From Minisyncoccota bacterium (GTDB taxonomy: Bacteria > Patescibacteriota > Minisyncoccia > Phycocordibacterales > UBA9973): a stretch of 64,000 nt of DNA. The translations under genes and the position numbers were made by a program. The notes below the pieces were generated by a model. It worked only from the letters and a program-made list of their open reading frames with translations. It did no database searches and was not told the origin of the DNA. The stretch spans positions 14,436 to 78,435 of the forward strand of contig JBAYFP010000002.1 of assembly GCA_041667145.1 (NCBI GenBank), written 5' to 3'. Shown one piece after another: positions 44,527 through 46,803 of the stretch. The first letter of the stretch is position 1; the number at the start of each line of letters is the position of its first letter.

Positions 44527-46803
44527 CTATTGTAGCATATCCAAAAATTCTTTCTCGTAAATTATTTTTACACCTAATTTTTCAGCATTTTTCAACTTTG
44601 AACCGGCTTCTTCTCCCGCCACGACAAAAGAAGTATTTTTTGAAACAGAACTTGAGACTTTTCCACCCAAAGAAATAATTTTTTCTTTAGCAAGTTCACG
44701 AGACATTTGTGAAAGTGTACCTGTCAAAACAAAAGTAAGTCCTTTTAATTTGCCTTCTTTCTTTTTTTCAACTTTTTCTATGGCTACACCATTTTTTAGT
44801 AATTTTTCTATAAAAATTAAATTATTTTTATCTTGGAAATAATCAACAATACTTTGAGAAACGGCAGGACCAATATTTTCTATACTGCTTATTTCATCTA
44901 GGCCCCCGCCTGCATCGCTATGCGAAGCATTGCGGGCAGGTTGCCTAGCTGAAGTTATTAATTTTTCTAATGTGCCAAAATTCATAGCTAAGTCTCGCGC
45001 AGTCTCCTCCCCCACATGTAATATCCCAAGAGCAAAAAGAAATTTAGAAAAAGGGATTTTTTTCTTTAATTTTATTTCTTTTATAATATTTTCAGCACTT
45101 TTTTCCCCGAATCCCCGAAGGAAAGTCTTCGACTTCCTACGGGGCATGCTCTCAAGTGAAGCAAAATCATTTACTGTCAACGTGAACAAGTCTGCCGCAT
45201 CTGTGATCAATCCTTCATCTTTAAATCTTCTCAAAATTTTTGGACCTAATTCGTAAATTCCAAAAGCAGAAACAAAATGTAAAAGTGATCTTTCATTTTT
45301 AGCAGGACATTTTGAGTTAGTACAATAATAAGCAACGGAAGTATCCAAAGTCCTTTGAGAAATGGTCTGGGATTTATCTCGAGGACCTTTCAAAAAGGAG
45401 CTTTGGATACTTCCGATATATCTTTTTTCTACACTACTTCCACAAACAGGACATTTCGAAACCATTTTAAATTTCTTTTCTTTGCCTGTACGCATGCGTG
45501 TCAAAACTTCCACAACTTTTGGAATAACGTCTCCCGCTTTCTCTATCACCACAGTATCTCCTATCCTTAAATCAAGTCTCTCTATTTGGTCCATATTATG
45601 AAGTGTAGCTTTCGATACAGTAGACCCTGCAACAGACGTCGGCTCAAAAATTGCGAGTGGTGTAAGTACGCCTGTTCTTCCTACGTTTATTCTTATATCT
45701 TTTACTATCGTTGTAGCTTTTTCTGCTGGATATTTAAAAGCAGCCATAAAACGAGGGGCTTTACCGACAACTCCTAAAGTCTTTTGTAGCTCTAAATCAT
45801 CTACAGATATCACGACACCGTCTGTACCAAAAGGAAAATCAGGACGAATTTTTTCAAATTTTTTAATAAAATCTATTACTTCTTTTATATTTTTACAAAT
45901 AGCGTCGTTTTTATCCATTTGAAAACCAAGCTCTTTGAGATATTTGTGTTTATCTGAGTGATTAAATAAACTTGCTGAAGAGTTTATTTCTGCAATATCG
46001 TATGCGAAAAAATCAAGATTCCTCTTAGCAGCTAAATTTGGATCCAATTGTCTCAAGCTTCCTGCTGCAGCATTTCTTGAATTTGCAAAAGGTGGTTTCC
46101 CTTCTTTTTCATTCTCAATATTTAATTTTATTAAAGTTTTCTTACTCATTAACACTTCACCACGGACTTCGAGGTAATCAGGAACTTTATCTCCTCCTTG
46201 TTGAGGAGGAGTGCCAGAGGCGAGGTGGTTCTTTTTTAAATTACCACCCCCTACCCCCTCCTTATCAAGGCGGGGGGATAGCTCTAGTGGCATAGATTTT
46301 ATTGTTTTTAAATTTTGAGTTATATCTTCTCCAATAAATCCATCACCTCTCGTTGCACCTCGTATAAATTTACCTTTTTCATATATAAGAGAAACCGCTA
46401 AACCATCGAATTTGACTTCGCAAAAATATTCAACCCCCCTAAACCTGGTGTAGGAGGATTCTCCTACACCAGGTTTAGGGGAAATTTTCTCAGGTGGTAA
46501 AAGCTTTTTTATTCTCTTTTCCCAATCATATAATTCCTCCTCACTAAAGACATCGTTTAAAGAAAGCATCCTGTTTTTATGCTCCACTTTTTCAAATTTA
46601 TCTAAAGGTTTCCCAGATACTCTATTTTCTGGAGCATTAGGATCATTGAATTCAGGATGCTCCTGTAAAAGTTTTTTTAATTCCCTCGTCAAAGAATCAT
46701 ACACTTCATCTGTACCTATGTCTTTCGTATGATATGCATCACGCAATCTTGCGATCTCGCTTCGCAATTTTTGTACCCGCTTTTGTGGATTATTTTCTTG
46801 CAT
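44527..46803 (-). CDS. ligA: NAD+-dependent DNA ligase LigA, carrying multiple in-frame GC-rich palindromic insertions
   Basis: The adenylation motif [11 protein letters not shown] (KxDG), OB fold, Zn finger (CPVCGS...C), HhH ([10 protein letters not shown]) and C-terminal BRCT are all present. It is 758 aa, longer than usual because of the inserts. Confidence 0.9.
44898..44952. repeat. REP-related GC-rich palindromic insertion inside ligA (ctaggcccccgcctgc...atgcgaagcat...gcaggttgcctagctg)
   Basis: The right end, revcomp cagctaggcaacctgccc, shares the 11-nt core cagctaggcaa with the RAYT-flanking REPs. It encodes the extra loop [16 protein letters not shown]. Confidence 0.7.
45113..45144. 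repeat. GC-rich hairpin insertion inside the ligA HhH region (ccccgaaggaaagtcttcgacttcctacgggg)
   Basis: A near-perfect 13-bp stem. It encodes [12 protein letters not shown], inserted before the GFGEKSA motif. Confidence 0.7.
46191..46290. repeat. pair of GC-rich hairpins inside ligA (ctcctcc-ttgttga-ggaggag, then ccaccccctaccccctcc...ggcggggggatagctctagtgg)
   Basis: They encode the Gly/Pro-rich loop [27 protein letters not shown] in front of the conserved LEVRGEV. Confidence 0.65.
46436..46481. repeat. perfect 46-nt palindrome inside ligA (21-bp stem cccctaaacctggtgtaggag, 4-nt loop gatt)
   Basis: Read directly from the sequence. It encodes [16 protein letters not shown] immediately upstream of the KxDG adenylation motif. 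Confidence 0.8.

Follow-up and report, generated by a model that had tools for sequence, protein, structure and literature searches.

Why does a DNA ligase gene in an AT-rich, gene-dense bacterial genome carry GC-rich palindromes within its reading frame? The question is raised by ligA of a Minisyncoccota bacterium (assembly GCA_041667145.1), a lineage of the Candidate Phyla Radiation (CPR), for which we analysed a 64,000-nt stretch of contig JBAYFP010000002.1 (positions 14,436 to 78,435, forward strand; hereafter the window). A first-pass annotation made from the sequence alone had proposed that this ligA is riddled with selfish palindromic DNA comparable to the Rickettsia palindromic elements (RPEs). 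The comparison proved apt and can be sharpened, as one insert of ligA is a copy of a repetitive extragenic palindrome (REP) that flanks a gene resembling those of REP-associated tyrosine transposases (RAYTs), with a second palindrome nested in it. The inserts form hairpins and belong to DNA families that span sites, genes, genomes and orientations. We therefore read them as copies of short GC-rich palindromic mobile elements of the type of REPs and their inverted doublets (REPINs), most likely mobilized by a RAYT-like HUH/Y1 transposase, and assign this reading a probability of about 75%.

Inserts of the ligase gene

Alignment with E. coli LigA (2owo) and close orthologs revealed five insertion sites, and the inserts amount to the surplus of ~87 aa (11%) of this LigA over that of E. 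coli. The gene and its inserts, in a window of 34% GC, are the following (z values refer to folding as DNA against dinucleotide shuffles).

44527-46803, minus strand: ligA, the host gene, encoding a NAD-dependent DNA ligase of 758 aa with adenylation, OB, Zn-finger, helix-hairpin-helix (HhH) and BRCT domains
46436-46481, unstranded: E1, perfect palindrome with a 21-bp stem and a 4-nt loop; 48-nt insert at aa ~105-120, upstream of KxDG (z -9.0)
46186-46276, unstranded: E2, composite 84-nt insert at aa 179-206 with three hairpins (46191-46211, 46224-46248 and 46254-46276), family 0, CCCTCC..GGAGGG type (z -4.9 for the whole)
45336-45415, unstranded: E3, long imperfect hairpin in the Zn-finger loop, aa 463-490, family 1, with the frame GGTCCTCGR...CCAGACC (z -7.9)
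45112-45147, unstranded: E4, 36-nt hairpin insert directly before an HhH hairpin, family 9 (z -3.3)
44896-44952, plus strand: E5, REP unit in two parts, TCTAGGCC and TTGCCTAGCTGA, with a 36-nt palindrome (44905-44940) nested in the loop; HhH domain, aa ~618-636 (z -3.6)

All five GC-rich islands of the first-pass annotation are present, but two of them (46191-46211 and 46244-46290) are parts of the single composite E2, and the Zn-finger insert at 45336-45415 had been missed. The perfect 21-bp stem is real, E5 does lie inside the HhH region, and E. coli LigA is contiguous at the insert positions, the alignment with 2owo leaving query-only segments at aa ~105-120, ~177-203, 461-492, 553-564 and 618-632. 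E1 was said to sit just before the KxDG lysine; it is upstream of that residue but ends ~10 residues before K131. The claim that every island is a multiple of 3 nt fails for the palindrome coordinates and holds for the indels, which measure 48, 84, 60, 36 and 36 nt from E1 to E5 against orthologs, the 36 nt of E5 being nested within a 21-nt REP. Likewise, E1, E2 as a whole, E4 and E5 do fold into hairpins (z -9.0 to -3.3), while 46238-46295 alone does not do so significantly (z -0.7). The other segments folded gave z -9.0 (46430-46487, E1), -7.9 (45330-45420, E3), -4.9 (46185-46295, E2) and -4.5 (46185-46217); the arms of E3 are 32 nt long, 75% complementary and AT-richer. Perfect GC-rich hairpins numbered 10 against 0.85 expected, and ligA, which represents 3.6% of the sequence, accounts for five of the window's 32 most stable 60-nt folds.

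We then compared this gene with its counterparts at 80 related loci (designated by L-numbers) from species-representative metagenome-assembled genomes (MAGs) of Nomurabacteria and Paceibacteria, 79 of which provided usable ligA orthologs. Counting those of 5 aa or more, these orthologs carry 119 inserts, located at ~8 hot spots. Their inserts are richer in GC than the core (52.9% vs 37.4%), are enriched in codons for Gly, Pro, Arg, Ser and Gln, and show a median hairpin z of -3.9, compared to 0.02 for length-matched core segments (Mann-Whitney p = 6e-21). Identity to close LigA homologs is 65-74% overall and 72-80% over aligned columns, and their lengths span 665-784 aa; in a 40-sequence alignment, length variation was confined to a few blocks around 671 core columns, and the shortest orthologs lack nearly all inserts. 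The distribution of inserts on a tree built from the core columns is patchy: between neighbouring taxa, the Zn-finger site switches from empty to occupied, by members of five families or by one of several unclassified inserts. Furthermore, the syntenic locus L097, whose LigA is 79.5% identical, has uninterrupted sequence at the sites of E1, E4 and E5. These observations support the view, anticipated in the first-pass annotation, that the segments are lineage-specific insertions rather than ancestral sequence.

Because the source is a MAG, and since rpoC in the same window contains an in-frame stop codon, the palindromes might be artefacts of assembly or amplification. However, the same families occur at the same sites, always in frame, across many assemblies made independently in different studies and from different sources, which makes this explanation hardly credible. 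GC-rich hairpins in an AT-rich genome also resemble the byp elements of mitochondria, and the inserts could be left untranslated through ribosomal bypassing or RNA excision. Yet they keep the frame and contain no stop codon in this ligA and in all 79 orthologs, and intragenic REP copies (described below) are confined to one open frame per orientation. Neither bypassing nor splicing would impose such a constraint, which argues strongly against non-translation, an explanation that we consider extremely improbable. The ligA open reading frame (ORF) is intact, its catalytic motifs are invariant, and the inserts appear to be translated and tolerated.

All inserts are located between conserved blocks, and an AlphaFold model of LigA placed coil with a predicted local distance difference test score (pLDDT) below 50 at 114-120, 179-204, 465-491, 554-567 and 624-634, with positions in every insert. 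The inserts are thus probably disordered, Gly/Pro/Arg/Ser-rich loops. Such loops could have been acquired for a lineage-specific role in LigA, their hairpin potential being a by-product; the recurrent insert positions and the conservation of the E4 peptide in several orthologs fit this idea. It conflicts with the presence of unrelated peptides at one site, with the different peptides read from opposite orientations of the same DNA, and with the occurrence of that DNA in unrelated proteins. Furthermore, the inserts are missing from the shortest orthologs and the segments are predicted to be disordered. We give this alternative very little credence.

Other candidate classes (intein, intron, diversity-generating retroelement, terminator, Rfam RNA) were discarded on account of wrong size, absent motifs, lack of a T-run or lack of an Rfam match.

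A REP unit shared by a RAYT-like gene, trmD and ligA

The only transposase-like gene found by annotation of the window lies 24 kb from ligA. Short palindromes bracket it, and the same unit recurs in trmD and in E5.

20434-21096, minus strand: RAYT-like HUH/Y1 transposase gene, 220 aa, HUH motif NHFH, Tyr motif YIHLNP
21121-21141, minus strand: REP copy upstream of the RAYT-like gene
20417-20437, plus strand: REP copy directly following the stop codon of the RAYT-like gene, in the opposite orientation to the upstream copy
22060-22083, minus strand: REP copy in frame at the 3' end of trmD, encoding the tail ...SSRPCLAE...

The protein matched Pfam Y1_Tnp with 38.6 bits (cut-off 23), and H81, H83 and Y141 (the Tyr of YIHLNP) are invariant in twelve homologs from the window and the related loci. 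Foldseek analysis of its AlphaFold model (pLDDT 83) returned 4er8, a RAYT with its REP hairpin, as the top match (E = 3.2e-5) and ranked the TnpA proteins of IS608 and ISDra2 below it. Nearly 8000 of the 8000 candidates scored were homologs, those listed coming mostly from Paceibacterota and Nomurabacteria, and two homologs with 68-75% identity are named RayT or REP-associated tyrosine transposase in public sources. The protein also carries a C-terminal extension of ~70 aa. VioF, the sole match of a single-sequence search of the PDB, was spurious.

The unit CTAGGCCTTGCCTAG is found at 20419-20433 and its complement at 21125-21139. Viewed on the strand of the gene, TCTAGGCCTTGCCTAGCTGA precedes the transposase gene and an inverted copy follows it directly. 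The pattern CTAGGC-N(0-30)-GCCTAG occurs twice in the window against 0.03 expected, and the REP unit four times (both RAYT flanks, trmD and E5) against 0.2 expected. In trmD, the unit consists of TTCATCTAGRCC joined to TTGCCTAGCTGAA, which is the outer part of ligA E5. There, the 36-nt palindrome is placed exactly between CC and TT in the loop of the REP hairpin. The LigA of L093 (72% identical) has an un-nested REP at the E5 site, reading ...LEKLEF[SARQGLD]KISSIENIG, whereas the window peptide splits SARQ|GLD by 12 residues; E5 thus has a two-step origin. The nested palindrome also occurs elsewhere, with an 89%-identical copy in another ORF of L005 and partial copies in L037, L018 and L013.

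Allowing for at most one mismatch, the REP core gave 30 matches in 21 of 96 sources, 9 of them in ORFs of at least 150 aa; intragenic copies were found in ligA, in trmD and in further ORFs of L087, L088 and L091. A scan of metagenome contigs with the 20-nt unit revealed 15 loci, with five copies flanking RAYT homologs and four located in ORFs of 144-769 aa; L081-L093 originate from Hainich groundwater and comparable sites. The intragenic REPs always use the only open frame of each orientation, encoding SARQGLD or SRPCLAE.

Nine of the 80 related loci have a RAYT homolog within 10 kb of ligA, and nearly all of these nine homologs are flanked by small GC-rich hairpins of their own. Inverted flanking hairpins, arranged as in the window, were observed in L005, L038, L073 and L070, and an upstream hairpin only in L056, L044 and L054. 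The RAYT-linked core of L038, AAGGACAGTCCTT, is also the unit that family 3 repeats in the ligA of L014. RAYT-linked cores recur far above chance and, depending on the core, ~20-100% of their copies lie in ORFs of at least 150 aa; this share, lower than the coding density of ~92%, fits purifying selection. Together, these results suggest that the RAYT-like enzyme mobilizes the CTAGGCC REP and may act on families beyond it.

Two features adjoin the RAYT-like gene. A patatin-like phospholipase gene, located next to it between two REP copies, is split into an ORF with the Patatin N-terminal part and one with the DUF6363 C-terminal part (21136-21462 and 21536-22009, minus strand), which are 73 nt apart and may represent a pseudogene. 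On the other side, ~610 nt between the start of rpoB and the RAYT-like stop codon (19824-20433) are non-coding, unusually long for a dense genome; this region contains a strong fold at 20106-20165 and no Rfam match.

Hairpin families, their spread and their anatomy

Clustering the insert DNAs of the orthologs yielded ten multi-member families. In different genomes, each of families 0-5 and 7 is found at two or more ligA sites. Members of families 1 and 2 are present either way round, giving rise to unrelated peptides. The ligA of L032 contains family 2 twice, with cores 53/56 identical, compared to 60/72 for copies at the orthologous sites elsewhere. All the ligA elements of the window except E1 have family members at other sites, genes or genomes. 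The first-pass annotation's expectation of elements that are not unique and that form hairpins beyond chance was thus borne out. Shorter versions of E2 with the first hairpin only were found in other orthologs, and copies of it also in ORFs other than ligA. E4 recurs with 92-97% identity in the ligA of L009, in that of L093 and in an ORF of 725 aa of L087, and is absent from L097. At the site of E1, L096 has a REPIN-like doublet of similar architecture. Within the window, further family members were detected outside ligA.

22475-22519, unstranded: family-A element in trmD, a ~10-aa insert relative to solved TrmD
37860-37904, unstranded: family-A element in pheT, absent from L097 PheT
39136-39196, unstranded: family-1 element in pheT, missing in L097 PheT; L023 has a copy whose interior is the same
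29845-29897, unstranded: family-1 element in an SMC-like gene
33018-33061, unstranded: family-1 element in intergenic DNA, between the divergent NusB-NUDIX and ThrRS genes
24299-24345, unstranded: family-0 hairpin in the RNase R gene (z -3.7)

The two family-A elements are identical in 22 + 17 terminal nt and differ in their interior, and six other genomes contain perfect copies of their terminal 20-22-mer. The nhmmer profiles used here were built from ligA inserts and have little power for short motifs, so that the counts are ligA-biased lower bounds. A blastn-short search of the window with the five ligA elements gave self matches and short words only, which misleadingly suggests uniqueness because the families have short common termini and variable interiors.

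In L082, L085 and L090 (positions ~84-161), a REP unit abuts a family-0-like element (AAGGAGGGTTTCGGGGGTGGTAAT), which suggests that different hairpin families form clusters.

The anatomy of the palindromes was best seen by folding alignments, chosen over ungapped palindrome extension as the hairpins contain bulges. Family 2 forms a hairpin of ~95 nt with 36 consensus pairs and 95.6% of cells paired. Compensatory double changes affect 20 of the 36 pairs, against 8.0 +/- 1.9 in shuffles (0/500 reaching this value) and at most 4 in slid controls. The changes are strictly Watson-Crick, with only 5/249 cells of G-U type. The near-lack of G-U cells combined with compensatory change indicates a palindrome maintained at the DNA level rather than an RNA structure.

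This point bears on the possibility that the hairpins are functional mRNA structures such as RNase III sites, translational pause signals or stabilizers. Strong folding and an RNase III gene in the window could be cited for it, as could the conservation of the elements, which equals or exceeds that of the host gene (E4, 33/36 vs 68% for ligA and 48% for synonymous third positions; family 2, 78% identity vs 69% for the host gene). However, besides the scarcity of G-U pairs, the same element is found in both orientations and in intergenic DNA, its presence among close relatives is patchy, and no Rfam family matches: in the scan of the window only two tRNAs reached the gathering score, with no match within ligA. 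We consider an mRNA function very unlikely. The conservation of E4 (45112-45147) in L009, L093 and L087 is in itself far above what would be expected of a disordered loop.

Copies within a family consist of a conserved core and of outer stems whose arms match each other in a given genome, while their sequence changes from one genome or site to the next. Those of the Zn-finger inserts of L026, L056, L067, L008, L027, L032 and the window (45336-45415) are 15-25 bp long and pair almost perfectly, with numerous compensatory changes of Watson-Crick type. They may be older elements, inverted copies of the flanks or products of arm-to-arm copying. An origin by inverted duplication of the target was also considered; comparison with empty sites was suggestive, right arms resembling native loop residues, and the loops are too variable to decide. 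The family-1 frame GGTCCTCGR...CCAGACC was found 22 times; its interior measures 7-37 nt and is, in several copies, a small hairpin that differs from copy to copy. Together with the nested E5, these variable interiors suggest that hairpin loops receive further hairpins, a process proven for E5 only.

The locus-specific outer stems also raise the possibility that the palindromes arise and grow in place through replication errors, by intrastrand template switching or by hairpin-primed synthesis that copies an arm or a flank, with selection keeping the in-frame products and without any transposase. Strictly Watson-Crick compensation is compatible with it, and so are the perfect 21-bp palindrome E1, which lacks relatives, and the failure to find target-site duplications. 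On the other hand, in-place growth does not explain the conserved cores common to different sites, genes and genomes, the identity of the outer part of E5 with the RAYT-flanking REP and the trmD copy, or the un-nested and nested pair formed by L093 and the window. As the origin of the elements it is unlikely in our estimate, while in-place copying may still contribute to homogenizing arms and extending stems.

We therefore favor dispersal of mobile REP-type elements. Under this model, elements would spread in Paceibacteria genomes via a RAYT-like HUH/Y1 transposase acting on hairpins of single-stranded DNA, possibly targeting single-stranded DNA or hairpin loops. With genomes ~92% coding, many insertions would hit genes, and the survivors would be those in frame, free of stops and located in loops that tolerate extra residues. 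Such a survival filter would produce recurrent hot spots, and inserts could then grow by accretion. A more ambitious version, which we regard as tentative and would not yet bet on, is that the system is active in Paceibacteria and inserts preferentially into single-stranded hairpin loops, so that tolerated hairpins become self-reinforcing, Russian-doll hot spots. Selfish loops would then be a main source of length variation in CPR housekeeping proteins (>10% of this LigA), their symmetry being kept by DNA-level copying between arms and not by selection on RNA or protein.

Several observations weigh against the model of REP-type elements mobilized by a RAYT. The direct link to the RAYT concerns E5 only: the sequences of E1-E4 are unlike the CTAGGCC REP, none of the RAYT homologs was found flanked by hairpins of family 0, 1, 2 or 9, and no transposition event was observed. 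No DNA relative of E1 was detected in 1.55 Mb of sequence, and E4, known from one ligA site and one ORF of L087, is possibly a single old insertion. Comparison of filled and empty junctions of E1, E4 and E5 (vs L097) defined neither a target-site duplication nor a conserved target motif, the sole junction repeat being the 8-nt TTCGGGGA at one end of E4. The presence of both orientations at one site can be explained by flipping between arms, and its reading as independent insertions is weakened by L027, where the core is flipped and the outer stems are homologous to those of L026, L067 and L008. Regarding the enzyme, the best NCBIfam match, REP_Tyr_transpos, scored 47 bits, below the equivalog cut-off of 80, and the best solved match of the homolog profile, again 4er8 (E. 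coli TnpA-REP), was weak (E = 0.033), with both motifs aligned. Copy counts for the source genome cover the 64-kb window. The LigA model is mediocre overall (AF2, pLDDT 65), and the surface exposure of the inserts rests on inference. Finally, the GTAG/CGTC tag is absent from both strands of the unit TTCATCTAGRCCTTGCCTAGCTGAA; these tags define two large REP superfamilies, not every REP (PMC3733652).

Known systems and other features of the window

REP/REPIN-RAYT systems are well described in Proteobacteria. The locus resembles the REPtrons of Enterobacteria, Pseudomonas and Stenotrophomonas in having a small HUH/Y1 transposase, with E. coli TnpA-REP (4er8) as best profile and fold match, located between inverted copies of a short GC-rich hairpin that is also found elsewhere in the window. 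Related genomes have their own hairpins, and the doublets of inverted units (family 3 and the L096 and L097 inserts) recall REPINs. Unlike the predominantly extragenic REPs of these systems, however, many copies here are intragenic and probably translated. The host is a CPR bacterium with a very small AT-rich genome, the unit bears no GTAG/CGTC tag, and the enzyme has the ~70-aa C-terminal extension and falls below the NCBIfam cut-off. IS200/IS605 elements belong to the same enzyme superfamily, and recognition of single-stranded-DNA hairpins is the expected chemistry, but the gene described here is accompanied neither by tnpB nor by left and right ends like those of insertion sequences, and its fold is nearer to 4er8 than to IS608 and ISDra2 TnpA. 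Unlike miniature inverted-repeat transposable elements, E1, E4 and E5 show no flanking direct duplication at their junctions vs L097.

The RPEs described by Ogata and colleagues in 2000 are reportedly palindromic repeats lying in frame in essential genes of the reduced Rickettsia genome, translated, and presumed to occupy tolerant surface regions. As in ligA, a repeated palindromic element is thus found in frame in protein-coding genes whose ORF stays intact. RPE-1 units are longer (~100-150 bp) than the elements described here, and we know of no transposase linked to RPEs. In the present case, by contrast, GC-rich elements are set in an AT-rich genome, and a RAYT-like gene is linked to one of the families; the likeness to RPEs is one of architecture. 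GC clusters of yeast mitochondria are optional and can lie in frame in var1. In the mitochondria of Nematomorpha, in-frame coding palindromes with both arms translated are described for compact genomes (PMC6649704). Both cases share with ours GC-rich or perfectly palindromic DNA in frame in AT-rich compact genomes, but are organellar, unrelated in sequence and without an identified transposase.

The closest precedent is the report of REPs in frame in known genes of Opitutus terrae, Thauera, Xanthomonas and R. conorii, often genes of replication, repair or tRNA metabolism (Di Nocera et al. 2013, PMC3733652). The genes named include the DNA ligase of Opitutus terrae, UvrD, recB and tRNA synthetases; the REPs occur as single units, dimers and clusters, sometimes twice per gene, and R. 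conorii RPE-4 and RPE-6 are equated with such REPs (PMC3733652). The elements described here differ in phylum and sequence families, in occupying up to five sites in one gene, in hot spots to which several families return throughout an order-level clade, and in documented nesting. The first-pass annotation had considered such elements undescribed in streamlined genomes; this agrees with the open-access literature, in which we found no report of them in CPR/Patescibacteria, but translated intragenic REPs are known elsewhere, including in a DNA ligase (PMC3733652). The co-mention of a tyrosine transposase and Patescibacteria in the literature was traced to an archaeal rbcL locus and not to CPR elements. 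The kind of element is thus already known; the CPR host lineage, the lack of a tag, the five sites in one gene, the reuse of loops by several families and the nesting set the present case apart.

These findings extend REP/RAYT systems and RPE-like translated selfish DNA to the CPR, whose genomes count among the smallest and the most densely packed with genes that are known, so that tolerance of such elements is least to be expected there. In spite of the word extragenic in the name of REPs, a large share of the copies here lie inside essential genes. Insertions specific to CPR housekeeping proteins may therefore be scars of mobile elements and not adaptations. Such inserts disturb marker-gene alignments and structure predictions, and could be used as strain-level markers. 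Furthermore, a translated in-gene element tied to a transposase-flanking REP provides a testable enzyme/substrate pair, absent for rickettsial RPEs, and the nested and un-nested alleles, with the locus-specific compensating outer stems, lend themselves to the study of how palindromes are targeted and maintained.

Some other features of the window deserve mention. Intergenic GC-rich perfect hairpins at gene ends (22780-22813, 28704-28735, 50281-50340, 60446-60478 and 61907-61938) look like intrinsic terminators, distinct from the in-gene elements. rpoC is interrupted by an in-frame TAG (15848-15850, minus strand) between the ORFs 15848-16648 and 13016-15844, at the position expected for the conserved Glu of RPEWM (GAG to TAG); possible explanations are a sequencing error, a population variant, a split gene and read-through. 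A small ORF at 28304-28720 (minus strand) encodes a Cas2/PaaX-middle-like domain, with no CRISPR array noticed nearby. Apparent gene fusions join NusB to NUDIX (31763-32683) and a D-Ala-D-Ala carboxypeptidase (S11) to PGA_cap (25606-27492). Finally, a large type IV pilus cluster (46812-58892), syntenic in L097, lies directly upstream of ligA and encodes pilins, a prepilin peptidase, PilB/PilT-like ATPases, PilC, PilM and PilO.

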